In this document: positions 1 to 44,333 of the stretch, in pieces
Layout of the letters: every line of letters begins with the position of its first letter
Numbering within the stretch: the first letter of the stretch is position 1
Source of the DNA: a plasmid
Strand: one strand, 5' to 3'
Length of the DNA: 44,333 nucleotides
Sequence record: NZ_AP023325.1
Translations under genes and position numbers: made by a program
The notes under the pieces: generated by a model
What the model saw: only the letters and a program-made list of their open reading frames with translations
The model's database searches: none
Told to the model about the DNA's origin: nothing

Positions 1-2
1 GC

Positions 3-270
3 CTCGCCGAGTTCGAGCGAGAACTGATCGTCGAGCGCACGCGCGCCGGTCTGGAGTCCGCTCGGGCACGCGGTCGGCACGGCGGGCGTCCGTTCAAGAT
101 GACGCCGGCCAAACTGCGTCTCGCCAGCCGCGATGGGCAAACCGGAAACCAAGGTCGCGGAGCTATGCGCCGAACTCGGCGTGACGCGCCAAACACTCTA
201 CCGACACGTCACGCCGAAGGGCGAGATCAGGCCCGATGGTGAAAAGCTGTTGGCGCGAGGGCGCCGATAG
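3..270 (+). CDS. tnpR: Serine resolvase (TnpR of transposon 1), C-terminal part continuing from the window end. Catalytic-domain end (LAEFERELIVERTRAGLESARARG) in frame 3, then the HTH (MGKPETKVAELCAELGVTRQTLYRHVTPKGE) in frame 1, implying a 1-bp indel near 125-135.
   Basis: Own translation. Conserved resolvase motifs. The window end (…GRLIFAIFA + g) joins the window start (gc ctc gcc…) in frame to give IFAGLAEFERE. Confidence 0.8.
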
Positions 271-293
271 CAGTCGGCTGAAGCTGCTCAGGT

Positions 294-1073
294 TCAGAGC
301 GACGATGCCGTAACGTAGGTTCCTACCGCAATCACGACGGCGGCAAAGCCACGTTCGAGCAGCCCCTTACGGGTGCCGAGAACCTTGCCCAATGCAATAC
401 CGCCGATCGTTCCAGCGACGCCGCCCACGACCAGCATCGCGGTCACGCTCCAGTCGACCAGCCCCGACAGGGCGTAGGACAAGGCGGTGGTCAACCCCAG
501 CGCGCTGACGACGACCAGCGACGTGCCGATCGCGAAGGGCAGCGGCATCGCGGTCGCGAGGATCAGCCCCGGCACGATCAGGAAGCCGCCCCCGATCCCG
601 AAGAAGCCGGCGGCAAGCCCGACGCCCAGCCCGATCGGAACCAAGCGCGGCAGCAGCGTCGAGGCGCTATCGCGGGTCAGTCGCACGTCCGGCGCTTCCG
701 CCGTGCGGCGCTTGCGCAACATCGACAAACCGACGCCAATCATCAGAAGCCCGAACAGGACAAGCAGTCGCTTGCCGTCGAACGCCTTGCCCAACTCCGC
801 CCCCAGCGCCGCGCCGATCATTCCGGAGACGGCGAAGACACTGGCGCACCGCCATTTCACGCGGCCCGCTCGCGCATGGCCGACCAGGCTGGCAAGCGCA
901 TTGACGGTGACGGCGACAGCGGCCGTCCCGATCGCAGCGTGCGGTGATCCGACGCCGACAACATAGATCAGGAGTGGCACGGCGAGGATCGACCCGCCTC
1001 CGCCGACAAGGCCGAGGATCAGGCCAATCACGCCGCCCGATGCAAGCGCGGCAAGGGTGGCAGCGGTGTCCAC
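294..1073 (-). CDS. TauE/SafE (DUF81) family sulfite/anion exporter-like membrane protein, 259 aa, intact.
   Basis: ORF track. Glycine-rich multi-TM repeats (GGGGSILAVPLL…, GIGGGFLIVPGL) typical of TauE/SafE. It sits in a BigR-type operon. Confidence 0.8.
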   Translation of the reverse strand: MDTAATLAALASGGVIGLILGLVGGGGSILAVPLLIYVVGVGSPHAAIGTAAVAVTVNALASLVGHARAGRVKWRCASVFAVSGMIGAALGAELGKAFDGKRLLVLFGLLMIGVGLSMLRKRRTAEAPDVRLTRDSASTLLPRLVPIGLGVGLAAGFFGIGGGFLIVPGLILATAMPLPFAIGTSLVVVSALGLTTALSYALSGLVDWSVTAMLVVGGVAGTIGGIALGKVLGTRKGLLERGFAAVVIAVGTYVTASSL

Positions 1074-1080
1074 GATCGCC

Positions 1081-1598
1081 TCAGGCTGTCGCGCGCCGGT
1101 TCCAGGGCATGACGCGCAGCAGGTTGGCCATGCCGCACCACCCCGTCACGCCCGCGAACATCAGCCCCGCCCCGACGAACGCCGACAGCCCGAAGAAGCC
1201 GGGAGCGACGAACGTGCCGAGCAGAACGCCGATCAGCACCAGCCCACCGGCGGTAATCTGCACCTGCCGCATGATTTCCAACGGCTGCGACCGATCGGCG
1301 ACGGTGGGCTGTCCTGCCTGCCGCCACGCATCGATGCCGCCGCCCAGATATAGGCCGGCGCGCCACCCGCTGCCGCGCCGAGCTGCGCCGCATTGGCGGC
1401 GGTGCGCATCCCGGACTTGCAGTGAAAGACGACCGGACGATCGTCGCGCGGGAGATCGCCGATCCGGTCGAGCGGCACGTTCATCGCGCCGGGAATGCGT
1501 TCGCGCGCATGCTCGTCGGCACCGCGAATGTCGATCAGGCGCGCACCGGCATCGATCGCGGCACGGGTATCGTCGGGAGAAAGGGTCGCGAGCGTCAT
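1081..1598 (-). CDS. YgaP-like rhodanese (sulfurtransferase) fused to a C-terminal DUF2892 two-TM domain. The reading frame is broken by a 1-bp deletion at ~1346-1352 (…GGAPAYI / [35 protein letters not shown]…).
   Basis: Own translation of both frames. Rhodanese active-site loop [11 protein letters not shown]. The frames rejoin exactly if one c is restored in cctatatc(c)tgggc. Confidence 0.75.
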
Positions 1599-1602
1599 CG
1601 CA

Positions 1603-1899
1603 TCAATCCTTGCAGTAGAGCTGGTAGAGAGTGCCGAGCAGCGTTTCGACGCGGGCATCCGCGATGGCGTACCAGAGCGTCTGGCTCTCCCGCCGGTAGG
1701 TGACGAGACCCTCGTCGCGCATCCTCGCCGTGCTGCGAGCAGGCCGACTGCGACAAGCCGACATCACGGGCCAGATCGCCGACCGTCATCTCGCCATGCT
1801 CGACCAGCTTGCACAGCAGCATCAGCCGGCGAGCATTGCCGATCGCCTTCAGCGTGTCGGCGACCTGCCCGGCCTTCGCCTCGAATGTCGCCAGTCCAT
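1603..1899 (-). CDS. ArsR/SmtB-family (BigR-like) HTH repressor, ~99 aa, with two apparent 1-2-bp indels (~1729-1731 and ~1890).
   Basis: Own translation: …AKAGQVADTLKAIGNARRLMLLCKLVEHGEMTVGDLARDVGLSQSA | VSQHLARMRDEGLVTYRRESQTLWYAIADARVETLLGTLYQLYCKD. Classic ArsR wHTH, recovered by shifting frame. Confidence 0.65.
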
Positions 1900-1951
1900 C
1901 GGCGGTTTGAGCATCATCGCCACTCCATTAGGTGTTGCTTATGTAGCACCA

Positions 1952-1965
1952 GCTAATATATTAGC
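1952..1965. promoter_or_regulatory. Perfect 14-bp palindrome GCTAATATATTAGC in the divergent arsR/MBL intergenic region (flanked by TTGCT…AGCAA). Candidate ArsR/BigR operator.
   Basis: Seen in sequence. It sits between divergent promoters, ~20 bp upstream of the GGAGA RBS of the MBL gene. Confidence 0.5.
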
Positions 1966-1985
1966 AAGCGCTAACGGAGAAAATC

Positions 1986-2861
1986 ATGACTCAGCCCCTC
2001 ATCGAGGCGTTTTTCGACGAGCCGACCAATACGATTAGCTACCTCGTCGGCGATCCCGCGACACGGACTGCGGCGGTGATCGATCCAGTCCTCGACTTCG
2101 ACATGGCGAGCGGCGTCGCCGACACGCGCTCGGCCGAGCGGATCGTCGCCTTCGCCCGCGAGCAGGACTGGCGGATCGCGATGGTGCTGGAGACGCACGC
2201 TCATGCCGATCATCTGTCGGCCGCACCCTTCATCAAGGCGCATACAGGCGCATGGATCGGGATCGGCGCGCATATCCGCGACGTGCAGAAAATCTTCCGC
2301 CCCGTGTTCGCGATGGATGATCTGAAAACGGACGGCTCGGACTTCGACCGCCTGTTCGAGAATGGCGACCAGTTCGCGATCGGGGCGCTGGCGGTCGAGG
2401 TGCTGCATGTCCCCGGCCACACCCCGGCCGACGTGACCTATCTGATCGGCGATGCGGCGTTCGTCGGGGATACGCTGTTCATGCCCGACTATGGCACCGC
2501 CCGCGCCGACTTCCCGGGCGGGGATGCGCGGACGCTCTATCGCTCGATCCGCCGGCTATTGGCGCTGCCCGACGAGACGCGACTGTTCCTCTGCCACGAC
2601 TACAAGGCACCGGGTCGCGACGACTATCGCTGGGAGACGACGGTGGGCGAGCAGCGACGGTCGAGCGTCCACGTCCATGACGGTGTGAATGAGGACGACT
2701 TCGTCGCCATGCGCGAGCAGCGTGACGCCGGGCTATCCGTGCCCAAGCTCCTGCTGCCCTCGATCCAGGTCAACATCCGCGCGGGCCATTTCGATCAGGC
2801 GGAGGCGAACGGTGTCACCTACTTGCGTATTCCGGTAAAATGGAAAGCCGGCCATCCGTGA
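1986..2861 (+). CDS. MBL-fold metallo-hydrolase, ETHE1/Blh-like persulfide dioxygenase (291 aa, intact).
   Basis: ORF track. ETHAHADH (HxHxDH) motif. GGAGA RBS 6 nt upstream. Divergent from an ArsR gene, as in bigR-blh loci. Confidence 0.75.
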   Translation: MTQPLIEAFFDEPTNTISYLVGDPATRTAAVIDPVLDFDMASGVADTRSAERIVAFAREQDWRIAMVLETHAHADHLSAAPFIKAHTGAWIGIGAHIRDVQKIFRPVFAMDDLKTDGSDFDRLFENGDQFAIGALAVEVLHVPGHTPADVTYLIGDAAFVGDTLFMPDYGTARADFPGGDARTLYRSIRRLLALPDETRLFLCHDYKAPGRDDYRWETTVGEQRRSSVHVHDGVNEDDFVAMREQRDAGLSVPKLLLPSIQVNIRAGHFDQAEANGVTYLRIPVKWKAGHP

Positions 2862-2890
2862 TGTCATACGATCGCTGACACGGCTTTGTG

Positions 2891-2928
2891 CTTAGCGTAC
2901 GTTTTCGACCATCCTCTCACCGGTCCCC
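2891..2928. repeat. 38-bp terminal inverted repeat of Tn3-family transposon 1 (cttagcgtacgttttcgaccatcctctcaccggtcccc), followed by the TSD GTTCT (2929-2933).
   Basis: Perfect reverse-complement match to 40857-40894. Canonical GGGG…ACGCTAAG Tn3-family IR architecture. Confidence 0.85.
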
Positions 2929-4218
2929 GTTCTGGCGGCCCTTCACCGACATTCCCGATATCGACATGGACACGGCCGCGATCGTCCGCGCCTGGAGCGC
3001 GGCGCGCGACGCGGTGCTTACGATCCTACGCGCGAAAGCCGCCGCGCCCCTGGATGCGATGGAGCTGTCGCCAGAATGCATCGCCGCGATCGACGCCTAT
3101 GACGTTCATCGCGCGATGGTTGCTGACCTCTCGGACGCGCTCCTCGCCCGCAATCCATCGATCGCCATCGTCAAGGAACAGGCCGCAGTCGCCGACATAG
3201 CCACGCTGTCCGACGACCTCGCGAAGCTCACCGCTGTAAGGACGCGGCACCAGACACCCACCGCCGCGCTTTGCGATGCATACCTCGGGGAGAAAGCGGC
3301 CAAGAAGGCGACGGAAAAATTACGCGATGAGGCACGCGCCGCGCTCGACCAATATCGGGGAGGTGTCTTCCCCGCCTACGAGGCCGCGATCAACGACTAT
3401 CTGGGCCGCTTCAACGCCGGTTTTCGGCTTGGCTCCGTCACGTCGGTGAACAACCGGGGCGGATCGTCCGCCAGCTACAGCGTACTCATCAACAACGTCG
3501 CGGTCGCGCTGAGCGCCGATGGTGGCCCTTCGTTCAAGAACACGCTCAGCGCCGGTGATCGAAACGCCCTCGCCTTGGCCTTCTTCTTCGCCTCGCTCGA
3601 TCAGGACGCCCGGTTGGCGGAAAAGGTCGTGGTCATCGACGATCCCATGACAAGCCTGGATGAACATCGGCGGCTCACGACGGTCCAGAGATGCGCCGGC
3701 TATATGGCCGGGTACGTCAGATGATCGTGTTATCTCATTCCAAGGCGTTTCTCTGCGCCGTGTGGGACGGCGCGGATCGAATGGCTCGCTGCGCCCTTCA
3801 GATCGTGCGAAGCGGCGGGGGATCGACGCTCGCGCCCTGGGACGTGCGGCAAGACACGCTCACGCCGCACGATCGCCGGCACGAGCTGGTGCGGGAATAT
3901 CTCCGGACCAGCGATTCCGCGCGCGAGCGCGAGGTCGCTGCGGCGCTCCGTCCAATCCTAGAAGCGTTCATGCGGGTGGCTCACCCCGAAACCTTCCCGC
4001 CAGGCACACTGCTTGGCCCATTCATTGCCATATGCCAGCAGCGGCATGATGGACCCGGCGAGATACTATCCCCGGTTGCGACGACCGAGCTGCGCGCGCT
4101 GCTCGATTACGCCAACACCTTCCATCACGATACGAACCCGGCTTGGGAAACCGCCCTCATCAACGATCGGGAGCTGCTTGGCTTCGCTACCCGGACGATT
4201 GCCTTCGCTTCGCGGTAA
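2929..4218 (+). pseudogene. 3' half of an AAA_13/RloC-PrrC-like ABC-type ATPase gene cut by transposon 1. Carries the ABC signature LSAGDRNALALAFFFASL, Walker B/D-loop VVVIDDPMTSLDEHR and a ~170-aa C-terminal domain of unknown function. Has an additional 1-bp frameshift at ~3690.
   Basis: Own translation. Once the transposon and one TSD copy are removed it continues in frame from the 5' half at 39853-40856 (…VENREFW|RPFTDIPDID…). Confidence 0.7.
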
Positions 4219-6640: not shown

Positions 6641-6645
6641 GTCTA

Positions 6646-11462: not shown

Positions 11463-11727
11463 GGCGGTCAGGGCGGAGGTCCGCGCGCTGAATTACGTGC
11501 GCGGCACATCGGAGGAAGCCGCCGACTGGCGTCGCGCCGATGCGGACGCGCGCCACAACAACGTCATTGAGGGGCTGGAGTTCTCGTCGGCCGAGGACGC
11601 GCTGTTCGACATGCTGCGTGACGAGGCGGTGCCGCCCGAGCTGGCTACGCGGATCGTCCTCAAACTGATGGATCATCCCGACGCCGATCGGAGCCTCGCG
11701 ATCACGTCTGTCGGAATGGGCTGGTAA
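11443..11727 (+). CDS. Hypothetical 94-aa protein. Its TAA stop overlaps the traG ATG.
   Basis: ORF track. taATG overlap. Confidence 0.4.
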   Translation: MMPLDVEAVRAEVRALNYVRGTSEEAADWRRADADARHNNVIEGLEFSSAEDALFDMLRDEAVPPELATRIVLKLMDHPDADRSLAITSVGMGW

Positions 11728-13025
11728 TGCCGCCCCGCCGGATCGGGCCGCTCTGGGCGCTGCTGATCGCCTTCGTCGTCCTGATGGCGAGCAATAACTG
11801 GCTCAAGGGCATCTTCGGCGTCGGCGAGATTGCGACCGACGTGCCGTTCCTGCTGACCGGCCTGACCCTGTTCGGCATCTGGAAGTTCAACCGCCGCGGC
11901 GGCAATCGCAACACGCTGATGGGGTCGGCTCGCTTCGGCGACCGGCGCGACCTGGCGAAGCTGGAAGGATCGGGCGACCTCATCATCGGCCGGTCGGGTC
12001 GGAACAACAAGCTGCTGCGCTACGATGGCGTGGCGCATCTGCTGACGATGGCCCCCACCCGGTCGGGTAAGGGGGTCGGCACGATCATCCCCAACCTGCT
12101 GCTGCTCGATCGCTCGGTGATCTGCATCGACCCCAAGGGCGAGAATGCCCGCGTCACGGCCCGCACGCGGGCCAGCAAGGGCGATGTGTGGTGCCCGGAC
12201 CCCTTCGGCGTTTCCGGGCGTCCTGCGGCCCGCTACAACCCGCTGGCGTGGCTCGACGCGACCAGCCCGGACCTCGCGGAAGATGCACAGACGGTCGCCG
12301 ACGCGCTGGTCCACGATGCAGCCGGACAATCGGGCGAGGCGCACTGGAACGAGGAAGCCAAGGCGCTCATCGCCGGCATCATCCTGCACACCGTTGTCCA
12401 CGAACCCATGTCCCGCGCCACGCTGGCGACGGTGCGTGACAAGCTCACGCGCGATCCCGCCGGTTTCGCCGCGCTGCTCGCCGAAATGCAGGCCAGCACC
12501 GGCGCACATGGCCTGATCGCGCGCGCCGCCAACCGCCACCTCGGCAAGTCCGATCGCGAGGCCGCCGGCGTGCTGTCGTCCGCCCAGCGCCACACCCATT
12601 TCCTCGACAGCCCGCGCATCGTGGACAGCACGTCGGCGTCCGATTTCCGGTTCGCGGACCTGAAGGAGCGGCCGGGCACCGTGTTCCTGTGCCTGCCGCC
12701 CGACCGACTCGACACCTATGCTCGCTGGCTTCGGCTGCTGGTCGCCCGTGCCGTCACCGACATGGCGCGCTCCCCTGCCCGGCCGGACAAGCCGGTGCTA
12801 TTCCTGCTCGACGAGTTCGCCGCGCTTGGCCGTCTCGATCCGGTTGAGCGCGCGATGGGGCTAATGGCGGGTTACGGGATGCAGCTCTGGCCGATCCTCC
12901 AGGACATGCACCAGCTCAAGGCCACCTATGGTGAGCGCGCCGGCACCTTCATGTCCAACGCCGGCGTGATCCAGACGTTCGGGGTCAACGATCTTGCCAC
13001 CGCCGACATGCTGTCGCGTACTATC
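11727..13025 (+). pseudogene. traG: traG/virD4 coupling-protein gene, 5' portion. Walker A-type region and LFLLDEFAALG motif. Cut at 13025 by transposon 2.
   Basis: TraG/VirD4 motifs. Reading-frame continuity with 20866-21111 once the insertion and one CTATC copy are removed (SRTI|GDTTIEYE). Confidence 0.8.
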
Positions 13026-13146
13026 GGGGCACCTCAAGGTTTGTCATATGGACAGCGGCAGTCGGAACAAATGGTCAACAAAAGCCTGAGCGTTGCCGCA
13101 AAGTATATTAAGTTTCGTGGGTTTGTGAGGTTGGACGAGTTGGAAG

Positions 13147-20865: not shown

Positions 20866-21111
20866 GGCGACACCACTATCGAATATGAGACGTTCGGCAC
20901 GTCTCGTCCGGCGAGCATCTTCAGCGACGGTGCCCGATCGGAAAGCGCCAGCGGCCATGTCGCCGCCCGCCGGTTGGCGACGCCCGATGAAATCATGCGG
21001 ATGAACCCCGACGATCTCCTGCTGCTGCGGCAGGGTCAGCATCCGCTCGTCGTCGGCAAGATCCGCTACTATGCCGAACGCGAGTTCGCTGGCCTCTACG
21101 ATCCGGCGTGA
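20866..21111 (+). pseudogene. traG: traG/virD4 3' fragment (C-terminal ~82 aa) displaced by transposon 2.
   Basis: GDTTIEYETFGTSRP…LLLLRQGQHPLVVGKIRYYAEREFAGLYDPA, typical TraG C-terminus. Confidence 0.75.
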
Positions 21112-21299: not shown

Positions 21300-21676
21300 T
21301 CCGCAAATCTCCCTTCCCTGTCGTTTGATCCATGCGTCTGGGGTTAAGTGATTCTGTTAAATAGGAATCGTTAAGAAGGTTAAGGGGTCAAAAAAGCGGA
21401 TTTCTCGACGTATTTTCAATGGTTTGCGAGAGCGCCCGGTGGGTGAAACCCCGTGATTCGGTGGGTGAAACCCCGATAGTGTGGTGGGTGAAACCCCGAA
21501 GCGATGGTGGGTGAAACCCCGAGTCAGACTTGCGCGAAAACCGGGTGTTCAGATCGGTTATCCACAGACTGAAAGACTGTTCGCCATCCGAAGCGGCGTG
21601 CCGGCGTCCGCTGGTCGACTCTGACAGGTGGGTGAAACCCCGATAGTTTGGCCGGCGGTGGGTGAAACCCCGATAG
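21300..21676. promoter_or_regulatory. oriV: Iteron-type oriV. Has an AT-rich stretch (~21300-21420). Six copies of GGTGGGTGAAACCCCG sit at 21438, 21460, 21483, 21506, 21627 and 21657 (the first four at 22-23-bp spacing). A perfect DnaA box TTATCCACA lies at 21558-21566.
   Basis: Seen in sequence. Immediately adjacent to repA. Confidence 0.8.
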
Positions 21677-22629
21677 TCAGCGGCGGCCTGCGAGCCGATC
21701 CATCCGGGCATCCACCTCCTCAGTGCGCCGGCGATCAGCGTCGAAGCGCGCGCGTCGCTCCTCCTCCGCCCGCATCTTCTCTGCCAGCGCCAGCGTCTCG
21801 GCCTCGCCGCGGCGTCTGAACTGGACGGCTGGACTCCTGTCGGTCGTCTCCGCCAGCTCCATCGCATAGTCGGGGAGCTGATCGGCCTCGATCACGCGCC
21901 GGAGCATCCGGTTGAACTCCTTGGGCTGGGCGTCGCTGCCGGTCTTGTCGCGCAACACCTCGACCCGGCACAACCACCCACCCTGCTGCGAGCCGACATG
22001 CTTGCGCGCGATGCGATACAGCGCCCGCTCCAGCCCCCCGGACAGGAGGAAATAGTCGGGGTGCATGGTCAGCAGCGACTTCTCGTTGACGATGCCCTCG
22101 TAAACCCAATCGGAGAGGGTCAGTGTCATACCGCGGGCTGTTCGGTGTCGGCGTCGGTATCGAACGTCCAGCTATCCAGCCAGTTGAAGCCCGCCTTCTG
22201 CCGACGCTTCGTCGCCCGGATCGAGGTCGTGATGGATGTGGTCTGGAGCCGGAGCAGCGCGGCTTGCAGCTCCTGATAGTCCCTGCCCCCGGTGCTGCGC
22301 TTGATCGCCCGCAACAGGTCGTAGGGCGTCGTCGTCAGCGTGCGCGGTAGGTCGTTCAAGCCCTGCTGCTTCATGCGGTTGAGCGTGGATGCCGCCCAGA
22401 TCAGGATATCGGCATCCCAGATCGTCGCCATGCCATAGTCGGGGATCGCCTGGACGCGCACCCACGCCTCGCCGTCCGGGCTTTTATACTCGATCGGCTT
22501 CAGCCGCTTGCGCTTCTGGAGCGAGAAGAACGGCCGCTCCATGACCTCACGCTGGTCGCGAAGCGGCAGGTCGCCCAGCGCCGGGATGAACAGGTCGAAC
22601 TCGGGGTTGGGATCGCGCCGCTTGCTCAT
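21677..22629 (-). CDS. repA: Plasmid replication initiator RepA (alphaproteobacterial RPA/PF10134-like), 1 frameshift ~22128.
   Basis: …EFDLFIPALGDLPLRDQREVMERPFFSLQKRKR…ATIWDADILIW… motif pattern. Adjacent iterons. Confidence 0.7.
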
Positions 22630-22958
22630 GGCGCGAACCTGGTGTGCCCCGCTTGACCAGATACTGGCGGAGCAGGCGTTCGGTGATGACGGTGAGCGGT
22701 TCCCCACCCTCCTCGACGCTGAGTTGACGCAACGCGCGGTGCATGTCCTCGGGGATATGGATCAGCACCGGCTTCTTGCCGATGGCTGCTGCGCTTGGCC
22801 GGCGCTGTCGACGTCGGCGCGCCGGCGTCGCGGCGCGATCGACGCGCGGGTGCAGACTGCTGAGGTATGGGGGCAGACTCGACGGCGGGTGCCGGCACCT
22901 GTTCTTCGGGCTGGTCATCGAAAATGCCGGCCAGCGCGGAAGGCTTCCTCGCCATCAT
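22626..22958 (-). CDS. parG: Small ParG/RHH-type partition DNA-binding protein (frameshifted; 3' end uncertain).
   Basis: Disordered basic N-terminus plus an RHH-like KKPVLIHIPEDMHRALRQLSVEEG. Its start overlaps the parA stop. Confidence 0.5.
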   Translation of the reverse strand: MMARKPSALAGIFDDQPEEQVPAPAVESAPIPQQSAPARRSRRDAGAPTSTAPAKRSSHRQEAGADPYPRGHAPRVASTQRRGGWGTAHRHHRTPAPPVSGQAGHTRFAP

Positions 22959-23623
22959 GCCACCTCGCTTACTTGCTTATTCGTATAGCCGCTTAGTCGC
23001 TTAGCCTCTTCATAGGCGCTTCGCAACTCGGCCGCCGCCTTGCTGTCCGGCTCCGTCTCGGCCGCTGTCCGCCCGAGCGGCGTCGCCTTGTAATAGTCCT
23101 TACGGAAGTGAAGGCGGCTGTCGAACAGCGTCACGCCCTTCGCCGCGAAACCGGCGTGGGCCTCCTGCCCCTCCCCGCCCCGGTGCGGCACTTGGGTCAG
23201 GATGACCGCGAACGGCGTCCCCGCCTGCTGGACCTGCTTCACGGTCTGCAACACCGAATGAACGTCAAGCCCGCGCGGCGCGACGGGGATGATGACGAAA
23301 TCCGCCTGCTCGGCCGCGAGCATGGCGATGTCCTTCGAGTTCGCCGGCGTGTCGATAATGATGAGGTCGATCTTGCCGCTGCTTCGCCCGCGCGAGACGT
23401 GGAGCGGCAGGCCGGCGACGCTGCTGTCCTTCACCATCACGTCGTCATCGTCGCGCCGCTCCGACCAGTAGAGTGCCGACCCCTGCCGATCGTCGGCGTC
23501 GAGGATCACGACCGATGCCCCCTCGCGCGCCGCCTCGACGGCGAAGCCGGTGGAAAGGGTTGTTTTGGATTGACCGCCTTTCTGCGCGATCACGGCCCAT
23601 ACCTGCATGACTGCTACTCCCAC
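22955..23623 (-). CDS. parA: ParA/MinD-family partition ATPase (type Ib), intact.
   Basis: Deviant Walker A AVIAQKGGQSKTTL. 222 aa. Confidence 0.8.
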   Translation of the reverse strand: MGVAVMQVWAVIAQKGGQSKTTLSTGFAVEAAREGASVVILDADDRQGSALYWSERRDDDDVMVKDSSVAGLPLHVSRGRSSGKIDLIIIDTPANSKDIAMLAAEQADFVIIPVAPRGLDVHSVLQTVKQVQQAGTPFAVILTQVPHRGGEGQEAHAGFAAKGVTLFDSRLHFRKDYYKATPLGRTAAETEPDSKAAAELRSAYEEAKRLSGYTNKQVSEVA

Positions 23624-31300: not shown

Positions 31301-32276
31301 CAGTGCGCCGCCCCGAACTCGGTGCCGAACAGCTCGGCCGCGCCATCGGTGACGACATGCGCGCCGGCCGTCAGCCCGCGCGCCAGCAGCGCCCGTCCGC
31401 CGCTTTCCGACGCCACCTCGACGCGCTGGCGCACGAAGGTGTCGGGCGCGGTCCGCTGATAGACCCACTCGCCACCGTGGATATCGCGCAGGATCGCCGC
31501 GGACGGCACCGACAGTCCCTCGGTCTGCCCGGCGAGCGGCAGGTCCACCGCGACCCGCTGGCCGACGCGGAAGGCGCGATCGCGATTGTCGATGGCGTAA
31601 TACAGGTCGACCGTGCCCGCGACGGTGTTGGCCGAAGGCGGCGCCTGAACCGGGCGCGCGGCGCGGGAGCGCCGCCATCGCCGAGCGTGCGCACCGTCGC
31701 GCTGGCCGCGCGGCGCACATCGCCCATGTCGCTGCCGAACACCGATGCGCGAACCCATAGGACGGGCTGCGAGCCGAGCGCGGCGACTGCCGGTCCGAGC
31801 AACCGTCGCTGCTGACGGGCAGCGCCGAGCGCCGCCTGCGCCGCTGCCATCGCCGCTGCGGCTTCGTCGCGGGCGCGCACGCTACCGGCCTCCTCGCGCA
31901 CCAGGCTTTCCGCCCGGTCGAGCGCGATCCTCGCCAGCCGCGCCTGCGCCGTGGCGCGGGCCAGTTCGGCGTCGGCCGCCGCCTGCTGGCTGCCGATCTG
32001 CTGGAGGTTGGTGGTCGAGTTGACCGGCACGCCATTGGCGCTGATCGGCGGCACGACGATCTCGCCGGCAACCTCGCGCGTGGCGGAGGCCGATCCTCCA
32101 CCCACCCGCGCCATTGCTATGCCAAGACGCTGCTGGGCCTGGGGGGTGAGGGTCAGCTTCAACAGCTCGCTCTCATGCGCGATCGTCTCCGCATGGGCGG
32201 GCGGCGCGGGCGGCTTCGTAGCCTTCTCGCCACAGCCGGCGAGCAGGATCGGGATCAGGAAAAGGGTTTGACGCAT
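31300..32276 (-). CDS. RND membrane-fusion protein (CzcB/CusB-like), 1 frameshift.
   Basis: Lipoprotein signal LLAGCG. Beta-barrel/hairpin MFP motifs. Its stop overlaps the RND start. Confidence 0.65.
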
Positions 32277-35306: not shown

Positions 35307-35415
35307 GCTTCGCCTATAAGGCAAACGATCACATTTGACGATCGGAATGACAATATAGATGCGTTAGAACGATCAGTGGTTGCGGCATAGATGATGCGGC
35401 GGAAGGAACACCGCC

Positions 35416-36474
35416 GTGACCACCATTGCTCAATCCCACGCTGCCGCGTCGATCACCGAGTCCGACAGGCTGCTCACGCTCCTGCCGGGTATCGGTCTGT
35501 GCCTGGTCGTAACCGGCGTCGCTTATGCGCTGGAGGCAGGCGAGCGCGCCTGGCGGGAAAGGCGTGGCTGGAGGCGCTGGTGCTCGCCATTCTGATCGGT
35601 ACCGCGATCCGCAGCCTGTGGACGCCCGGCGACCGATGGCACGAGGGCATCGCATTCAGTGCCAAGTATCTCGGAAGTCGCAGTCGTCCTGCTCGGCGCT
35701 TCCGTCAGTGCCGCCACCATTTTGGCCGCTGGTGTCCCGTTGCTCGTCGGCATCGCCGGCGTGGTGGCGAGTGCGATCCTGCTCAGCTTCGGCATCGGGC
35801 GCCTGCTCGGCCTGCCGACGCGCATGGCGCTGCTGGTCGCATGCGGCAATTCGATCTGCGGCAACTCGGCCATCGCCGCGGTGGCACCGGTGATCGGGGC
35901 CGACAGCGATGACGTCGCCGCCTCCATCGCGTTCACCGCCGTGCTGGGCGTCATCGTGGTGCTGGGCCTGCCGCTGCTCGGCATCGCGCTGGGCATGAGC
36001 GGCATCGCCTTCGGGGCGCTGGCCGGACTGACCGTGTACGCGGTGCCGCAGGTGATCGCGGCCGCCTCGCCACTGGGGGCTGCGGCCGTGCAGATGGGGA
36101 CGCTGGTCAAGCTCGTCCGCGTGCTGATGCTGGGGCCTGTGTGCCTCGTCCTGTCGCTGATCGCACCACGCCTTGCCCCGCAGCAGATGCCTGCGGAAGA
36201 GGTCGTGGCGGGCACCGCGCGGGCAAAGACGTTCGATCTCGCTCATCTCGTCCCGTGGTTCATCATCGGCTTTCTCGTGATGGTCGCCTGCCGGTCGTTT
36301 GGGCTGGTGCCGACCGCTGCGATTCCGCCGATCGGCCGCATTGCCACCTTGCTGACCGTGGTGTCGATGGCGGCATTGGGGTTGGGCGTCGACGTTCGCA
36401 CCGTCGCAAAGGCAGGCGGCAAGGTGACGACTGCCGTGGTGCTGTCGCTGCTCGTCTGGGCGCGATCAGCATGA
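35416..36474 (+). CDS. YeiH/UPF0324 (COG2855) putative sulfate-exporter-family membrane protein, at least 2 frameshifts.
   Basis: Multi-TM. Classic LysR-divergent arrangement. Confidence 0.6.
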
Positions 36475-36599
36475 CCCTGCTGGCCCTGTTGCACATCGCG
36501 TGACGGCCGATCGTGGCCGAAGCGGATCGAATGACATGGGTTTATGTTGAGCCGGATGCGCGGATCGCCCGTGTCTGACCGTATGGAGTTGCCGATATC

Positions 36600-36968
36600 G
36601 TGAGAATCCCGCTCAAGACAGCGCTCGCCGCTGCCGCTCTGGTCAGCGGCACGGCGCTGGCCCAGACCAGCGACTTCGCCACCGTGATGGCCGGTGCGAT
36701 GCAGCGCATGCATCAGGCGATGGCGGTCCCATCGACCGGCGATCCCGATCGCGACTTCGCCGCGATGATGATCCCGCATCATCAGGGTGCGATCGACATG
36801 GCCGAGGCGGAACTCCGCTTCGGCAAGGACGAGCGGCTACGCCGCATGGCACAAGGCATCATCGTCGAGCAGCGGCAGGAGATTGCCGTGATGCAGGCCA
36901 TCCTGAACGAAAAGGGCGGCGCTCCCGCCGCTCCCCAGACCCACCATTCGGAAGGAACCCATCGGTGA
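36600..36968 (+). CDS. DUF305-domain periplasmic protein (associated with copper/metal resistance).
   Basis: Signal peptide. MIPHHQGAIDMA motif. Confidence 0.65.
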   Translation: MRIPLKTALAAAALVSGTALAQTSDFATVMAGAMQRMHQAMAVPSTGDPDRDFAAMMIPHHQGAIDMAEAELRFGKDERLRRMAQGIIVEQRQEIAVMQAILNEKGGAPAAPQTHHSEGTHR

Positions 36969-38103
36969 AGCAGCTGATCCTCGCAGCCCTTGCCGGCACC
37001 ATGCTGGCCCCCGTCGCGGCGACCGCGCAGCAGGTGCCGAACGCACAGCCCGACATGCCCGTCTCGTCCAGCGACCGGTTCTACACCTCGGACCAGTTTT
37101 CCAACACCGTGTCGGTCATCGATCCGTCGACCAACCGGCTTCTTGGCGTCATCAAGCTGGGCGATCCGACGCCGATGAACCTCAGCCCGCTCTATCGTGG
37201 GCAGCTGCTGGTCCACGGCATGGGCTTCTCGCCCGACCGGCGGACGCTCGCCGTCGTGTCGATTGGATCGAATGCGGTCAGCTTCATCGACACCGCCACC
37301 AACAGCGTTCGCCACACGACCTATGTCGGCCGCAGCCCGCACGAGGCCTTCTTCCGCCCCGACGGCCGGGAGGTCTGGGTCAGCGTGCGCGGCGAGGACT
37401 ATATCGCCGTCCTCGATGGTACGACCTACAAGGAGACGGGCCGCATTCCCGTCCCGAACGGTCCCGGCATGACGATCTTCTCGCCGGACGGGAAGTATGG
37501 CTATGTCTGCTCCAGCTTCTCGCCCGAAACCGTGGTGATCGACACCACGTCGAAGCAGATCGTCGGCCGGGTGAAGCAGGAAAGTCCCTTCTGCCCCGAC
37601 ATCGCCGCGACGCCCGATGGCAAGCAGGTCTGGCTGACGCTGAAGGACATCGGCAAGGTCATGGTGTTCAACGCGAAACCTCCGTTCGCGGTCCTGAAGA
37701 GCTTCGCGACAGGCGCGATCACCAATCACGTCAATATCGCGAAGACGCCGCGTGGCCAGTTCGCCTATGTGACGGTCGGCACCGAAAATGTCGTGAAGGT
37801 GTTCCGCACCGACGATTTCACCCAGGTCGCGACGGTCCCGGTTGGAGCGCTGCCGCACGGGCTATGGCCCTCGGGCGACGGCAGCCGCATCTATGTCGGC
37901 TTGAGAATGCCGATGCGGTTGCCGCGATCGACACCGCGACGAACAAGGTCATCGCGACCATCCCGATCGGGCAAGGCCCGCAAGGGGTCGCCTATGTTCC
38001 AGGCGCGGTGCCGTTAGGCACCGGCATGGCCAATCTCCAACCACTCGCCAAGGCGGGTGAGAAGGTTCAGCTGATGCTCTCCGGCACCGGACGGAGCCAG
38101 TGA
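36965..38103 (+). CDS. YVTN-family beta-propeller repeat protein, 1 frameshift ~37900.
   Basis: Repeated …NTVSVIDPSTN… / …DTATN… YVTN-like blades. Signal peptide. Confidence 0.6.
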
Positions 38104-38393
38104 CGCTGTTCGATCAGGGGCAGGTGCAGATCCTGCAAGCCGCCGTCGCGGGCCTGCCGCCGAAGATACCGTTCGTGCTGGGCCTGTCCACCAGCCCCGA
38201 TGGCAAAGGCCCGGTAGAACCGCTGGCCAAGTTCATGACCAATCCCGCAGGCGGTGCGATCGTGAATGCGGTTGGACCGCTGCGGCAGATCGTCACACAG
38301 TCTGCTCCCGCAGGGGCGCGTCGCTATCTGGTGATCGCGTCTGGTCAGCCGGACGCCGTGGGCAACGTCGTTCAACGGCAGGTCGAACAGTAA
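38100..38393 (+). CDS. Hypothetical 97-aa ORF. Its GTG overlaps the upstream stop and it may be a C-terminal extension of the propeller protein.
   Basis: ORF track only. Confidence 0.3.
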   Translation: MTLFDQGQVQILQAAVAGLPPKIPFVLGLSTSPDGKGPVEPLAKFMTNPAGGAIVNAVGPLRQIVTQSAPAGARRYLVIASGQPDAVGNVVQRQVEQ

Positions 38394-38408
38394 CGGATAC
38401 CCGTTCTT

Positions 38409-38441
38409 AAACGAGCATCGGGGACGCCCCGATGCTCGTTT
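38409..38441 (+). terminator. Perfect 15-bp stem / 3-nt loop hairpin AAACGAGCATCGGGG-ACG-CCCCGATGCTCGTTT.
   Basis: Seen in sequence after the metal cluster. No T-tract. Confidence 0.5.
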
Positions 38442-38452
38442 CCAACTATCGA

Positions 38453-38588
38453 TTCCCAAAAACGAACGTGTGACGGGAATCCGGCCACGCCGATCGCGCT
38501 GACGGACGCCTGCGGGTTCCGCTTTCCCGAAACCTGTTCCCGATTTACAATTCCCGAAACTGCCAATTTCGACGGGGAAACGGGAAAG
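38453..38588. promoter_or_regulatory. res: res-like array of TTCCC/GGGAA half-sites upstream of the resolvase at 38589. Includes ATTCCC-N17-GGGAAT, TTCCCGAAAC x2 and TTTCGACGGGGAAACGGGAAAG.
   Basis: Seen in sequence. Position and architecture typical of resolvase res subsites I-III. Confidence 0.55.
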
Positions 38589-39167
38589 ATGCTGATCGGC
38601 TATGCGCGTGTCTCGACGGCCGATCAGGATTTGACGTTGCAACTCGATGCACTGGCAAAGGCCGGGTGCGAGAAGGTGTTCACCGACAAGGCGAGCGGCG
38701 CGAAGATCAACCGGCCGGGGCTGATCGAGGCGCTGGGTTTCGCACGCGCCGGCGACACGCTGGTAATCTGGAAACTCGATCGGCTCGGTCGCTCGATCCA
38801 AGGCCTGATCGCGCTGGCGGCGGACCTGTCGGCACGGGGGATTGATTTTCGCTCGCTGACGGACGGGTTTGATACATCGACGGCATCGGGCCGGCTCCTG
38901 TTCCATATCCTCGCCTCGGTCGCGGAAATGGAGCGCGAGCTGGTCAAGGAGCGGACGATCGCCGGCTTGGCGGCTGCGCGCGAGAAGGGCAGCACGGGAG
39001 GGCGCAAGCTGGTGATGACGCCCGACAGGATCGACACGGCCTGCAAGTTGCTCGCCGTGGGCGAGAAGCCGGCGCGGATCGCGAAGCTGCTGGGCGTTGG
39101 CCTCTCGACCTTCTACCGGCAATTCCCGGCGAGCGAACGGGAGGCCGCGTCCAGCACCGAAGGGTGA
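38589..39167 (+). CDS. Serine recombinase/resolvase, intact (192 aa).
   Basis: MLIGYARVSTADQDLTLQ…, C-terminal HTH. Confidence 0.85.
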   Translation: MLIGYARVSTADQDLTLQLDALAKAGCEKVFTDKASGAKINRPGLIEALGFARAGDTLVIWKLDRLGRSIQGLIALAADLSARGIDFRSLTDGFDTSTASGRLLFHILASVAEMERELVKERTIAGLAAAREKGSTGGRKLVMTPDRIDTACKLLAVGEKPARIAKLLGVGLSTFYRQFPASEREAASSTEG

Positions 39168-39427
39168 TGCCTAGCCGCCCGCGCGTCCAACTATGCCGGC
39201 GATTGTGGGGCCACCTTCACGGTGCGAGGCCACTGAAACACCAGCGTGTCGCTCTCGTCACGAACCTCGACGCGCTCCGCCAAACCCATGTCAATGATCT
39301 CGCGGGCGTGATCTTGGACGGCGGTCAGGGATGACCTTTCCAAGTTTCACTACCATCCCAGCGGTGCCCGTTATTGAAGCGGATGATCTGGTAATCCATC
39401 GATCGGTCCTTGGGTGTAGAGGTGAAG

Positions 39428-39856
39428 ATGAACAAGCTGACCAGCGACGCCATTGAGGTCGTCAACCGCAACGCGCTCGTCACCGTCGCGCTGAACCAAG
39501 GCTATAACGCCTATCTGCCAGTCTATGACAACGGCATCGACCTGATCCTGCATAACGAGGCGTCGGGCGACACCCGACTTATTCAGCTCAAGGGGCGGTG
39601 GACGATCGACCGCAAATACATAGGCCGCGACATTTGGATCGCGTTTCCCGATCGTGGATGCTGGTATGTGGCCCCGCACGATGAGATGATGCGGCTCGGC
39701 GAGCGACACACCATGACGGAAAGCTGGGCGAGGGGCACCTATAGCAAGAGCCCGCTTAGCAAGACGGATTGCGAGGAGCTGGCCGACTATCGTTTCGGCG
39801 ATCCCGATCTTGTGATCGCGGAAGCGGAAAAGCTGGAGAGGATGGATGACGCATGA
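39428..39856 (+). CDS. Small PD-(D/E)xK-like (Hjc/restriction-endonuclease-fold-like) protein, ~142 aa. Its stop overlaps the ATG of the downstream ATPase gene.
   Basis: GAGGTG SD. Motif YDNGIDLILHN…(11)…IQLKGR (D…Q/E-x-K). Lower GC. ATGA coupling to the next gene. Confidence 0.5.
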   Translation: MNKLTSDAIEVVNRNALVTVALNQGYNAYLPVYDNGIDLILHNEASGDTRLIQLKGRWTIDRKYIGRDIWIAFPDRGCWYVAPHDEMMRLGERHTMTESWARGTYSKSPLSKTDCEELADYRFGDPDLVIAEAEKLERMDDA

Positions 39857-40856
39857 CGATCGAACGACTTCAGCTTCTTCGTAACGTCGGTCAGTTCGAT
39901 TCCGTCACCACCGGCGCGCAAACTCCGCTTACCAGGCTATCGCTAATCTATGCCGAGAACGGTCGTGGCAAGACGACACTCGCCACCATCCTGCGCTCGC
40001 TCGGCACGGGCGACACGGCGCTGATCGATGAGCGGCGGCGGCTCGGTTCCGCTCATGCGCCGCATATCGTCCTGGCTTCGGCCGGAGCGCCATTCACCTA
40101 TCAGAACGGCGCGTGGTCGGTGCTTCATCCCGACATAGCCGTGTTCGATGACGGGTTCGTCGCCGCCAACGTCTGCTCTGGCATCGCGATCGAAACGGCG
40201 CACAAGCAGAACCTGCATGAGCTGATCTTGGGAGCGCGCGGCGTCGCGCTGAACAGCGCCCTTCAAGGCCACGTCGAACGGATCGAGGAGCATAACCGCG
40301 CGCTACGCCTGAAGGGTGATGCCATACCCGCTGCGGCTCGCGGCACCCTGACCGTCGATGCTTTCTGCAAGCTCGCGGTCAATCCGGTGATTGACGCCAG
40401 AATCGCTAGGGCAGAGCAAAGCCTATCTGCGGCCTGGGCCGCCGGTGCAATCCGGGTGCGCCCGGCCTTCACGGCGCTATCCCTACCAACCTTCGATCGC
40501 GATGGCCTGAATGCCTTGCTCGCGCGCGGCTTGCCAGCGTTGGAAGCGGACGCCGCCGCGCGGGTAAAGGCTCACCTTCGTCGCCTCGGTCGGGATGGGG
40601 AGACATGGGTAGGGAGGGCATGACGCGCATTGCCGGCGCGTCGCAAGACCAACCTGGCGAGATATGCCCATTCTGTGCGCAGGATCTCGCGGCTTCCCGC
40701 TGATCCGGCATTACCAAGCCTATTTCAGCGATGCCTATGCCGAGCTGCGCAACACGATCAACCAAATCGGGAAGGGGATCAACACGACGCATGGCGGCGA
40801 CGTGCCGGCGGCATTCGAACGAGCGGTGCGCGTCGCGGTAGAAAATCGGGAGTTCT
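39853..40856 (+). pseudogene. 5' half of the AAA_13/RloC-PrrC-like ABC ATPase gene. Walker A ENGRGKTTL, coiled-coil insert, CPFCAQDL zinc-hook-like motif. 1 frameshift ~40615. Cut at 40856 by transposon 1.
   Basis: Own translation. In-frame continuation at 2934 after removing the transposon and one TSD. Confidence 0.7.
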
Positions 40857-40894
40857 GGGGACCGGTGAGAGGATGGTCGAAAACGTACGCTAAG
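40857..40894. repeat. 38-bp terminal IR of transposon 1 (GGGGACCGGTGAGAGGATGGTCGAAAACGTACGCTAAG), preceded by the TSD GTTCT (40852-40856).
   Basis: Perfect inverted match to 2891-2928. Confidence 0.85.
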
Positions 40895-43869
40895 CGTCCC
40901 GGCTTTGCTGGTGGAGGCGCAGCGGCCTGAACCGCTCGCGAGGTTTGTCGATCTCGCCCCAGAGATAGTCGCCGGTGAGGCCGATATGCTCCCAGCCCAG
41001 AGGGGCGACGTGGGCGAGCAGCTCGTCGGGCACGTCGACGCCGCTGCCGCGCAGATGACGGACAGCTCGGTCGAGATAGACGGTGTTCCAGAGCGTCATG
41101 GCCGCGGTGACGAGGGTCAGGCCGGAGGCGCGATGGCGCTGGTTCTCGAAGGTGCGGTCGCGCAGTTCGCCGAGGCGGTTGAAGAAGATGGCGCGGGCGA
41201 GCGCGTTGCGGGCCTCGCCCTTGTTGAGAATGCTGCCGGTGCGACGACGCTGGTCGGGATCATCGAACCAGTCGAGCATGAACAGGGTGCGTTCGATCCG
41301 ACCTATCTCCGCAGCGCGCGGGCGACCGAGTTCTGACGCGGGAAGCCCGCCAGCTTGCGGAGCATGACCGAGGCGCTCACCGTGCCGGCGCGGATCGAGG
41401 CGGCAAGGCGCAGGGTTTCGTCCCAGTTCTCCTCGATCGCGCGGATCTTGACCGGACCGGCGACGAGCGGGCGCAGCGTCGGCCACGAGTCGAGCGGCGA
41501 CAGGCTGTAGAGCCGGCGCTCGTTGAGGTCGCGGATGCGGGGCGCGAAGCGGAAGCCGAGCAGATGGCACAGGCCGAAGACATGATCGACCGCGCCGGCG
41601 GTATCGGTCGCATGTTCGCGGATGACCAGCTCGCTTTCATGGTCGAGCAGGCCGTCGAGGACATGCGCGGCCTCGCCGGCATTGGCGGCGATGACCTTGG
41701 TGTGGAACGGCGTGAAGCGGTCGGTGACGTGGGTGTAGAACAGCACGCCTGGTTCGGTGCCATAGCGGGCGTTGTGATCGGCGCGGGCCTCGCCCTGACC
41801 ACCGGCACGAAAGAACTGCCCGTCCGACGACGATGTATCGCCCGGTCCCCAGACCGCCGCGAGCGGATGCGCGGTATGGCAATCGACGATCGCCGCCAGC
41901 GCCGACAGATAGGTTTCGTCGCGCACATGCCATTCCGCCGTCCAGCGCAGGCGAGACAACGTCAGCCCGCGCGAGCTTTCGGCCATGCGGCCCGGCCGAG
42001 GTTGGTCGCATCGGCGAGGATCGCACCCATCAGCGCGGACTGGTCGGAGGCGGGCGCCGCTGCGCGCATGGACGAAACGGTCGGCGAATCCCGACCATGC
42101 GGCGACCTCGACCAGCAGATCGGTGATTCGGACGCGCGGCAGCATCGCGTAGAGCCGGGCCTTTAGCGCATCGGCATCGTCGGACGGGGATCGCCGGATC
42201 GACGATATGAGCAACTGCCCGCGTTCGATCGTCACATCGACCAGCTCGCCCGCTGCGGCTGCGCGCTCCACCTCCGTCATGCGCCGGGCCAACAGGGTGC
42301 GGCGTTCCTCGTACCATTTGGAAAAGTCGGTCGGCACAACCAGGCGCAGATCGCCGCTCGCGCGCATCGCTTCGAAGGCGGGCATGGGCAGCTGATAGTC
42401 GTCGAGCGTGCGATAGGCGCGGCTGCCGTCCACCCAGATGCTGCCCGAGCCGAGCCGCTCGCGCAGGTGGGCGATCACTGCGATCTCATAGGCGCGCCGG
42501 TCTATCGTCCCTTCCGCCGGCTGCACGACCTTGCGCCAGCGCGGCTTGATGAAGCTGGTCGGCACTCGCTTCGGCAGGACCGATCGACCGTCGCGGTACA
42601 TCGTGCGCAGCACCTCGATCGCGCCGAGCAGCGGATCAGCCAACCGCGCGGTGCGGAAGGTGAAAGCGGCGAGAAACGTCGGGGCGAAACGCCGCACGGC
42701 GGGATAGCGTTCGACCACTTCTTCCAGCCCGTCATCGGCCGAGCGCGTCAGATCCTCGGCAAAGCGGATGCTGCGTTCGAGCTGATCCCAGCCCATCTTC
42801 GCGTCGATCGCGCGGAAGGCATCGCGCCCGCTCGCACGAGCATCTACCAGCAGGCGACCGAGCCGGGCATGGAAACGCGCGGTGTCCTTCAGCATCCGTG
42901 CCCGGCCGAGCAGCCGATCGGAGCGGGTGCGGTCGGCACGGCGGAACAGCGCGCCCACCATCTTCTCCACCATGACCAGCGCGGCGTCGGTCAACGTCGC
43001 TTCCATCTCGATCACGGAAGCTACGAGCATGGCGAGCCGGCGCGGACGTTCGAGACGCCGCAGGTGCTGGGCGGTGACGATGCCGGCGGTCCGCGCAATG
43101 ACGGCATAGCGAGCAGCATGGATACGTCGTGCTCGATCAGCCGCGATCCCGATGCCGCGCACGGTGTCGAGCCGTTCGACGATTCCCTTCAGGTCCGCGG
43201 CCGATGGTGCTTCCGGCCATTCGCGTATCCATCCTAGCCGGGTGCGCCCATCATCGTCGGAGGCGATCATGTGTTCGAGTGCGGCTTCCTGTTCGGTCGA
43301 ACAGTCGCGGATCAGATTGAATGGGCCGCCTTGCGCGCCCGTGTCCGCACGATGAGGGCGAGCCGTTCCAGCGTCGATGTCGCCGGCAGTACGATCCGGT
43401 CCGCCCGCAAGCGATCGACCATGCCTGTGACGATCGTCTCACCTCTATCAGTCGAAGCGGCAATCTCCGATCCCAGCGCCAGCATCGCCCGTACATCCAC
43501 CCGCGCGAAGGCGCGCAGACCGAGCAGAGCTTCGATCTCGGCCCGGTGTTCGCGCAATGTCGTGGGGCGCGTGGCATAGCCGGTGAAGTCGTCGGCTACG
43601 CACCCGATCTGATCGGCGAGCAGCGCGAGCATGGCGGCGGGCACCGCATCCCCCGTCAGTAGCCTGCGACCGGGATGACGCAGGTAGCAAAGCTGCACCG
43701 CATAGCCGAGCCGGTTCGCCCCGCGCCGACGTCGCGCCACCTGTGCCAGATCGTCGGGACCGAGCGTATAGAGCCGTTCGATCGTCGCGCGATCGGCAGG
43801 CGGGTCGAAGATCAGCAGCTGCGCGGGCGACAGGATGGTCTTGGTCGGCATCGGCTTCCTGTTCGTCAC
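40890..43869 (-). CDS. tnpA: Tn3-family transposase TnpA of transposon 1, ~990 aa over 3 frames (at least 2 frameshifts). Its C-terminus ends inside the IR.
   Basis: N-terminus [22 protein letters not shown]…, central 655-aa piece, C-terminus …[18 protein letters not shown]…. Confidence 0.8.
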
Positions 43870-43979
43870 GAAACAGGAAAGCGTACCCGTTCATGGAGCA
43901 TAGACCAGAAGACGGGTTATGTGACATTATCGCGATTGATCGACGGGCAATGCCGCTCCGTCACGTGAACGGACGTATA
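43870..43979. promoter_or_regulatory. res: Probable res site between divergent tnpA and tnpR. Contains TGTGACA-type repeats (TTATGTGACATTA, TATATGTGACAACG).
   Basis: Seen in sequence. Canonical position. Confidence 0.45.
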
Positions 43980-44333
43980 TGTGACAACGCAGATCGGTTA
44001 CGCGCGGGTGTCCAAGGCGGACGGCAGCCGTCCACGACCTGCAGCACGACGCGCTGGTCGCGGCCGGCGTCGATCCCGAGCATATCTATGAGGATGCCGC
44101 ATCGGGCCGGCTCGACAAGCGACCGGGACTGGACGCCTGCCTGAAGGCGCTGCGCCGCGACGACACGCTGGTCATCTGGAAACTCGATCGGCTCGGCCGC
44201 GATTTGCGCCACCTCGTCAATACGGTTGGTGATCTGACGAAGCGTGGCATCGGGTTGAAGGTGCTGGCGGGCGAAGGCGCGTCGATTGACACAACCACCG
44301 CCAACGGTCGGCTGATCTTCGCGATTTTCGCCG
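43980..44333 (+). CDS. tnpR: Serine resolvase TnpR of transposon 1, N-terminal part (GTG start). Indel at ~44030. Runs off the window end and continues at base 3.
   Basis: VTTQIGYARVSKADGS…DTLVIWKLDRLGRDLRHLV…GRLIFAIFA. Confidence 0.8.

Follow-up and report, generated by a model that had tools for sequence, protein, structure and literature searches.

The two ends of the 44,333-bp stretch of DNA analyzed here (sequence record NZ_AP023325.1, 66.5% G+C; hereafter the window) very probably lie side by side on a circular plasmid of about 44.3 to 44.4 kb, a topology that we infer from the sequence. The first-pass annotation had proposed that the window is a complete circular plasmid of ~44.3 kb, and this proposal is supported by the base-perfect continuity of the ends, by the geometry of the terminal inverted repeats (IRs) and target site duplication (TSD) of a Tn3-family transposon, Tn1, by an empty Tn1 insertion site in a metagenome scaffold, and by the presence of rep, par, and tra genes. 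We propose that the record would represent a circular Sphingomonas-type plasmid linearized at an arbitrary position inside the Gly119 codon (helix E) of the Tn1 resolvase gene, tnpR. With helices assigned as in the gamma-delta resolvase structure, the break would lie toward the N terminus of helix E, a long helix with which the catalytic domain closes. Long-read assemblers emit circular contigs with an arbitrary start and trimmed ends, a behavior that would fit the window, where the start point appears to be arbitrary. The positions of the features discussed below are collected in Table 1.

Table 1. Positions, strands, and descriptions of features in the 44,333-bp window
Feature	Position	Strand	Remarks
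tnpR, 5' part	43981..44333	+	Serine resolvase of Tn1; GTG start at 43981 to first base of codon Gly119
tnpR, 3' part	1..270	+	Last two bases of codon Gly119 to TAG stop at 268-270
Tn1	40857..44333 and 1..2928		Limits from alignment of the 18 loci
Tn1 left terminal IR	40857..40895	+	39 bp; GGGGACCGGTGAGAGGATGGTCGAAAACGTACGCTAAGC, begins GGGG
Tn1 right terminal IR	2890..2928	-	39 bp; 39/39 complementary to left
TSD of Tn1, left copy	40852..40856		GTTCT, 5 bp
TSD of Tn1, right copy	2929..2933		GTTCT, 5 bp
tnpA	40890..43851	-	Tn3-family transposase of Tn1; DUF4158 + DDE_Tnp_Tn3
tnpA-tnpR divergent intergenic spacer	43852..43980		129 bp; presumed res site, position inferred from Tn3-family organization
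Tn1 cargo region	294..2861		
TauE/SafE exporter	294-1073	-	Tn1 cargo
Rhodanese	about 1081-1658	-	Tn1 cargo
ArsR/SmtB regulator	about 1600-1915	-	Tn1 cargo; reference annotation
MBL-fold hydrolase	1986-2861	+	Tn1 cargo
AAA_13 ATPase gene, 5' part	39853..40856	+	Interrupted by Tn1
AAA_13 ATPase gene, 3' part	2934..4218	+	
R-M module	4219-6596	-	Eco29kI-family endonuclease, C5-cytosine methyltransferase, overlapping vsr (very-short-patch repair)
traA	7402..10341	-	Ti-type relaxase-helicase; MobA_MobL + AAA_30
Candidate oriT	about 10372-10400		Intergenic, upstream of traA; CGTCGGCAACGACG hairpin, then TATAAGCGCG
Tn2	13027-20861		Tn3-family, 7.8 kb; TSD TATCG at 13022-13026 and 20862-20866
Serine recombinase gene	14026-14643	-	Internal
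Serine recombinase gene	17110-17673	+	Internal
Serine recombinase gene	38589-39167	+	Internal; backbone resolvase gene
Iteron-like direct repeats	21438..21681		Six, core GGTGGGTGAAACCCCG
repA	21677..22629	-	Replication initiator protein A (RPA, PF10134)
parA	22955..23608	-	ParA/MinD-type ATPase

Continuity of the resolvase gene across the window ends

The last bases of the window read GGT CGG CTG ATC TTC GCG ATT TTC GCC G (tail sequence, GGTCGGCTGATCTTCGCGATTTTCGCCG), and the first bases read GC CTC GCC GAG TTC GAG (head sequence, GCCTCGCCGAGTTCGAG). When the ends are joined, a single frame continues through the join as GRLIFAIFA-G-LAEFERELIVERTRAG, reading ANGRLIFAIFAGLAEFERELIVERTRAGLESARARGRHGGRPFKMTPAKLRLA and ANGRLIFAIFAGLAEFERELIVERTRAGLESARARGRHGGRPFKM over longer spans, and the codon for Gly119 of a 208-aa serine recombinase is split G/GC between positions 44333 and 1. 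The segment of TnpR in which the window is cut is GRLIFAIFAGLAEFERELIVERT. No direct overlap of at least 8 nt was found between the window termini.

The joined 2,133-nt junction aligned in one piece, with 100% coverage and 99.6% identity, to the Sphingomonas paucimobilis plasmids NZ_CP065714 and NZ_CP065669, where the match covers genes annotated as a Tn3-family transposase, a "recombinase family protein" of 208 aa, the TauE/SafE exporter, and the rhodanese. An exact-match scan with window bases 1 to 49, covering one genome per species among the GTDB representative genomes, gave another 17 loci, distributed among Sphingomonas, Sphingopyxis, and Novosphingobium. All 18 independent loci agreed: the sequence located 5' of the match to bases 1 to 49 was identical to the last 300 nt of the window (300/300), and the next 120 nt were identical to its start (120/120). 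The junction is therefore natural and contiguous, with zero bases lost or added there. The in-frame meeting of the window ends is far beyond what chance would produce.

These data uphold the earlier observation that a resolvase gene runs in frame across the window ends. The accompanying statement that no base is lost or extra holds at the junction, where all 18 loci are continuous, but not for the gene as a whole: compared with all reference copies, tnpR in the record lacks 2 bp at 44029/44030, where CCAGG has become CCG (GCCAGGTCC to GCC--GTCC), and another 2 bp at 125/126, where CCCAGG has become CCAG (GCCCAGGCC to GCC--AGCC). As a result of these two -2 frameshifts, tnpR is spread over three frames, one holding codons 1 to 16, one the catalytic core, and one the C-terminal part for DNA binding. 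An uninterrupted tnpR reading frame was thus not found in the record; both frameshifts are at CCAGG, and we attribute them to systematic sequencing error, as discussed below.

For profile searches, we used a reference TnpR corresponding to the window sequence with both 2-bp gaps restored. Its N-terminal catalytic domain matched Pfam PF00239 with 142.9 bits (cutoff, 23.3) over residues 5 to 144. The motif IGYARVS is of the (Y)xRVS type, and its Ser11, the nucleophile, aligns with Ser9 of Gin (4m6f; Ala in the S9A structure 3uj3). The alignment with Gin reaches residue 194 of 208 and includes the Gin DNA-binding domain; Pfam HTH_7 was not reported in the TnpR C terminus at an E value of <=0.001.

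The first-pass annotation had named an independent resolvase copy at each end as an arrangement that would speak against a circle. No such copies are present: each of the three remaining resolvase genes lies inside the window and shows no DNA-level relationship to the junction gene, with similarity limited to at most a 43-nt patch. The strongest internal repeat besides the IRs is 911 nt long at 68% identity. Since, leaving aside the short IRs, all internal repeats are at or below 70% identity, an assembler is unlikely to have collapsed any part of the window.

Tn1 and its empty insertion site

The Tn3-family characters of Tn1, namely, the transposase domains, terminal IRs of ~38 bp, and a 5-bp target duplication, were all found. 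Only when the window ends are joined do the IRs point toward each other, and GTTCT is present on both flanks, which agrees with the earlier claim that the geometry of this transposon needs a circle. The element is 6,405 bp long in the window, compared to 6,421 to 6,422 bp elsewhere, and is 99.6 to 99.7% identical to the 18 other copies. In the record, tnpA is broken by 1-bp deletions at 41308 and 43318 into three ORF fragments, which correspond to DUF4158, DDE_Tnp_Tn3 positions 1 to 274, and positions 274 to 389; there is an additional net 3-bp in-frame deletion at 43815 to 43817. The fragments are 99.6% identical to an annotated Tn3 family transposase and together span DUF4158 and DDE_Tnp_Tn3 positions 1 to 389. 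The sequence TATGTGACA occurs twice in or at the tnpA-tnpR spacer, at 43918 and 43978.

In our model, Tn1, composed of tnpA, res, tnpR, and a TauE-rhodanese-ArsR-MBL cargo, would have entered an AAA_13 ATPase gene through replicative transposition, duplicating GTTCT. The recipient would have been a mobilizable RepA/iteron/ParA/TraA backbone of roughly 30 kb, and TnpR, by analogy with the family, would resolve the cointegrate at the presumed res site in the tnpA-tnpR spacer.

Deletion of Tn1 and one GTTCT copy in silico restored a long AAA_13-type ATPase reading frame, and the 925-nt reconstruction aligned in one piece, with zero net indel, to intact "AAA family ATPase" genes of Sphingobium chlorophenolicum and of Methylocystis plasmids. 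An exact look-up of the 979-aa TraA (ATG form) gave matches in metagenome scaffolds only, including L021 (ENA ERZ27295564 k141_408882) and L022 (ENA ERZ23491645 DONG22-1_SAMN19687755 scaffold_144; 25,975 bp); an exact look-up of the longest TraA ORF (998 aa, GTG start) gave zero matches. L021 and L022 carry an identical TraA and the same backbone at 99.75 to 99.87% identity. L022 is collinear with the window from 35345 to 40858 and then directly from 2929 to 13033, with window position 40856 joined to 2929 via a single GTTCT within an intact 763-aa ATPase gene. By alignment, L022 is the true empty site of Tn1. Since L022 joins both Tn1 flanks, the flanks were adjacent before insertion, and with the other 38 kb contained in the window, the ring closes. 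The second transposon of the window, Tn2, is also absent from L022, and apart from the transposons, the scaffold is without only ~27.8 to 32 kb of the window (about 4 kb, mostly an RND pump), where the window is contiguous. The two independent short-read scaffolds are collinear with all of the backbone that they cover after the two simple insertions are subtracted.

The interrupted gene encodes a 763-aa AAA_13 (SMC-like/ABC-type) ATPase and is located directly beside the restriction-modification (R-M) module; the Tn1 insertion inactivates it. Given where the gene lies, the ATPase may have a role in defense. A 142-aa ORF (39428 to 39856) lies upstream and overlaps the start of the gene. At least two or three public metagenome assemblies contain the transposon-free backbone (~99.8% identity, identical TraA). 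It follows that this backbone is in circulation beyond the isolate that was sequenced and that Tn1 and Tn2 inserted recently.

It is unlikely that the ring is an assembly artifact or a subform, in which a larger true molecule (such as a cointegrate or multimer, or a plasmid whose repeats enclose an additional segment) has been collapsed to 44.3 kb. The low consensus quality of the record and a topology read from sequence leave some room for such a collapse, four serine recombinase genes and two transposons could mediate rearrangements, and the presence of Tn1 in multiple copies in the genus, as on three plasmids of Sphingomonas hankookensis E10, is a situation able to mislead assemblers. However, long internal repeats of near-identical sequence are absent from the window, its backbone follows the same order as L021 and L022 wherever they cover it once the two insertions are removed, and the matching TSDs indicate resolved simple insertions.

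Still less probable is that a larger replicon contributed the window as a linear segment lying between two direct copies of Tn1, so that the in-frame join is merely apparent. Tn1 is found on several replicons of related strains (three in S. hankookensis E10), and the S. paucimobilis copies sit on plasmids of 353 to 426 kb, but the cut points would need to coincide to the base within a 6.4-kb element. Independent insertions would also leave different 5-bp duplications, whereas GTTCT is found on both flanks here; moreover, the flanks together make up a single ATPase gene that is uninterrupted in an independent scaffold, and the window has its own rep/par module.

Error signature at CCWGG sites

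We compared the window with five independent reference segments totaling 36.9 kb and recorded 76 difference events, among which were 51 deletions; 45 events were at CCWGG. More than half of the CCWGG sites were damaged (45/84, 54%), compared to none or almost none of the control motifs (CCSGG, 0/130; GCWGC, 0/211; GANTC, 0/38; GATC, 1/404), and the window contains 49 CCWGG sites, versus 128 +/- 11 expected. The changes at CCWGG are 1- to 3-bp deletions, AG-to-GT miscalls, or T-to-C miscalls, with examples at 44029, 125, 41993, 1346, 1729, 1893, 13266, 15498, 17479, 18445, and 20536; homopolymer deletions are also present in the record. Within Tn1, 8 of 13 difference events were at CCWGG and 8 of 13 CCWGG sites were affected, while in Tn2, 18 of 24 CCWGG sites were affected.

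The genes interrupted in the record include tnpR, tnpA, repA, the methyltransferase gene, the AAA_13 ATPase gene, and others, and taken as given, they might be read as true pseudogenes of a decaying plasmid whose CCWGG sites have really mutated. We consider this highly improbable. The 54% of CCWGG sites hit stand against 0% at control motifs of the same composition, and the changes comprise about 21 substitutions versus 55 indels at >=99.7% identity to copies from other samples. Furthermore, deamination of 5mC would yield C-to-T changes, not 1- to 3-bp deletions and miscalls, and the replicon would not survive without a working repA. The pattern is best explained by systematic basecalling error at 5mC-modified CCWGG together with homopolymer deletions in an unpolished long-read-only assembly, and not by gene decay. 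No more credible than pseudogenes is a targeted mutation at methylated sites, e.g., through aberrant processing linked to the plasmid's own C5-methyltransferase/Vsr module, in which case the CCWGG deletions would be real and the record would have caught the plasmid while its genes were decaying at this motif.

With basecalling error as the preferred explanation, long-read assembly of CCWGG-methylated DNA would have produced small deletions at CCWGG and at homopolymers, so that the genes would only look frameshifted. The error pattern suggests nanopore as the most likely platform. The Dcm motif, CCWGG, is associated with deletions in nanopore consensus sequences. Modification-induced nanopore errors have been documented (PMC11610603); another report (PMC8495745) contains no direct statement on CCWGG consensus deletions. 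The record probably falls short of the actual plasmid by some 55 bp or more, which would put the plasmid at about 44.4 kb.

The error pattern would also reveal CCWGG methylation by the host. The plasmid itself encodes an Eco29kI-family methyltransferase, and the known specificity of this family is CCGCGG. Sites of this sequence were barely affected (2/19), so the plasmid enzyme is probably not the source of the error motif; the CCWGG methylase is probably encoded elsewhere.

Backbone genes and accessory regions

Without the two transposons, the backbone measures about 30.1 kb. We placed the genes of the window by mapping those of L022, as a GC3-based filter was too strict and was confounded by frameshifts. 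The first-pass annotation had listed RepA, iterons, parAB, and oriT-traA; RepA, six iterons, ParA, and TraA were indeed found, while "parAB" amounts to parA and a 110-aa ORF (22626 to 22955) that occupies the parB position beside parA and has zero Pfam matches. In the record, repA is broken into two ORFs that together cover PF10134; the L022 copy is undivided and encodes 317 aa. Four of the iterons are in tandem with 22- to 23-bp spacing (21438 to 21530), and the other two, at 21627 to 21681, adjoin the 3' end of repA. The candidate oriT was picked for its resemblance to nick regions of the Ti/RSF1010 type.

The backbone also encodes a SprT-like protein, two TraD proteins, and a VirD4-like coupling protein, and it carries LysR, YeiH, DUF305, and YncE genes. 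No mating-pair-formation genes were seen in the window, and thus the plasmid would be mobilizable rather than self-transmissible. In the R-M module, the C5-methyltransferase is 388 aa long in L022 and is fragmented in the window, where its gene occupies 5046 to 6208.

Genes for a two-component system (a HAMP/HisKA kinase and an OmpR-type regulator) are found beside TolC-like, RND adaptor, and AcrB-family pump genes at 24795 to 32276 on the minus strand. This region is 92 to 97% identical to parts of several large Sphingomonas/Sphingobium plasmids, and no flanking IRs were noticed. The region is accessory cargo of the backbone.

Tn2 and a nested element

In our model, a second Tn3-family element of 7.8 kb would have entered the coupling-protein gene. 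Tn2 is 99.4% identical to a copy in Sphingomonas naphthae NZ_CP117412 and sits in the VirD4-like coupling-protein gene (11727..13026 and 20867..21111), at about codon 433 of 514; in L022, the 514-aa coupling-protein gene is intact, with a single TATCG. Because the coupling-protein gene is interrupted by Tn2, mobilization of this plasmid copy may be impaired.

Within Tn2, a 3.07-kb segment (14673 to 17740) is bounded by 48-bp inverted repeats (14673 to 14720 and 17693 to 17740) that are 96% identical, and it contains genes for a Mu-type transposase (rve plus Mu-transpos_C) and an AAA_22 ATPase and the resolvase gene at 17110 to 17673. This segment looks like a nested TniA/TniB-type element beside another resolvase gene (14026 to 14643), reminiscent of the "res-hunter" transposons; no tniQ was seen in the segment. 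Compared with the S. naphthae copy of Tn2, the window has a 10-bp tandem duplication (TCGGCTACTC) at 13786 to 13795. Just four of the 76 events are of the insertion type, this duplication being one of them, and it may reflect true variation instead of a sequencing error.

Significance and comparison with known systems

Circular plasmid records routinely open partway through a gene, and the present case carries little biological weight. Its consequences are for annotation: the window should be treated as circular, as otherwise tnpR and Tn1 are miscalled as two truncated features, and the apparent pseudogenes (tnpR, tnpA, repA, the methyltransferase and ATPase genes, and others) would be methylation-motif sequencing artifacts removable by polishing. 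All parts of the plasmid are of already known kinds, namely, a near-identical annotated Tn3-family transposon, a small serine resolvase, and a mobilizable sphingomonad plasmid of the RepA/iteron/ParA/TraA type.

TnpR shares PF00239, the YARVS motif, and a long helix E, which in TnpR carries GRLIFAIFAGLAEFERELIVERT, with the small serine recombinases, including Gin (4m6f/3uj3) and the gamma-delta and Tn3 resolvases (1gdt/5cy1). Among proteins of solved structure, its best matches are the Gin invertase (4m6f; E value, 1.7e-42) and the gamma-delta resolvase (5e-21), and by sequence it is nearer to the former. Tn1 is near identical to the Tn3-family copies in S. paucimobilis NZ_CP065714 and NZ_CP065669 (TnpR, WP_082052512.1; TnpA, WP_042491074.1), with which it has in common a DDE transposase of ~990 aa with an N-terminal DUF4158, a divergent small serine resolvase, IRs of ~38 to 39 bp starting with GGGG, a 5-bp duplication, and cargo genes filling the interval from tnpR to the right IR. 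No biological difference separates Tn1 from the reference copies; the 13 difference events (12 gap openings and 16 gapped bases) are ascribed to sequencing error.

A search of PLSDB with both window halves found no record at >=80% coverage. Related sphingomonad plasmids of 24 to 46 kb in PLSDB have the traA-traD-T4CP-repA core in common with the window at 80 to 90% DNA identity, with the same gene set and local order; examples are S. naphthae NZ_CP117415 (24 kb), Sphingobium sp. RSMS NZ_CP053226 (26 kb), and Sphingomonas melonis TY NZ_CP017579 (40 kb). These small plasmids encode an RPA-type RepA, ParA, a Ti-type TraA, TraD, and a VirD4-like coupling protein. Unlike these relatives, the plasmid described here carries two acquired Tn3-family transposons, of 6.4 and 7.8 kb, one of which interrupts the coupling-protein gene.
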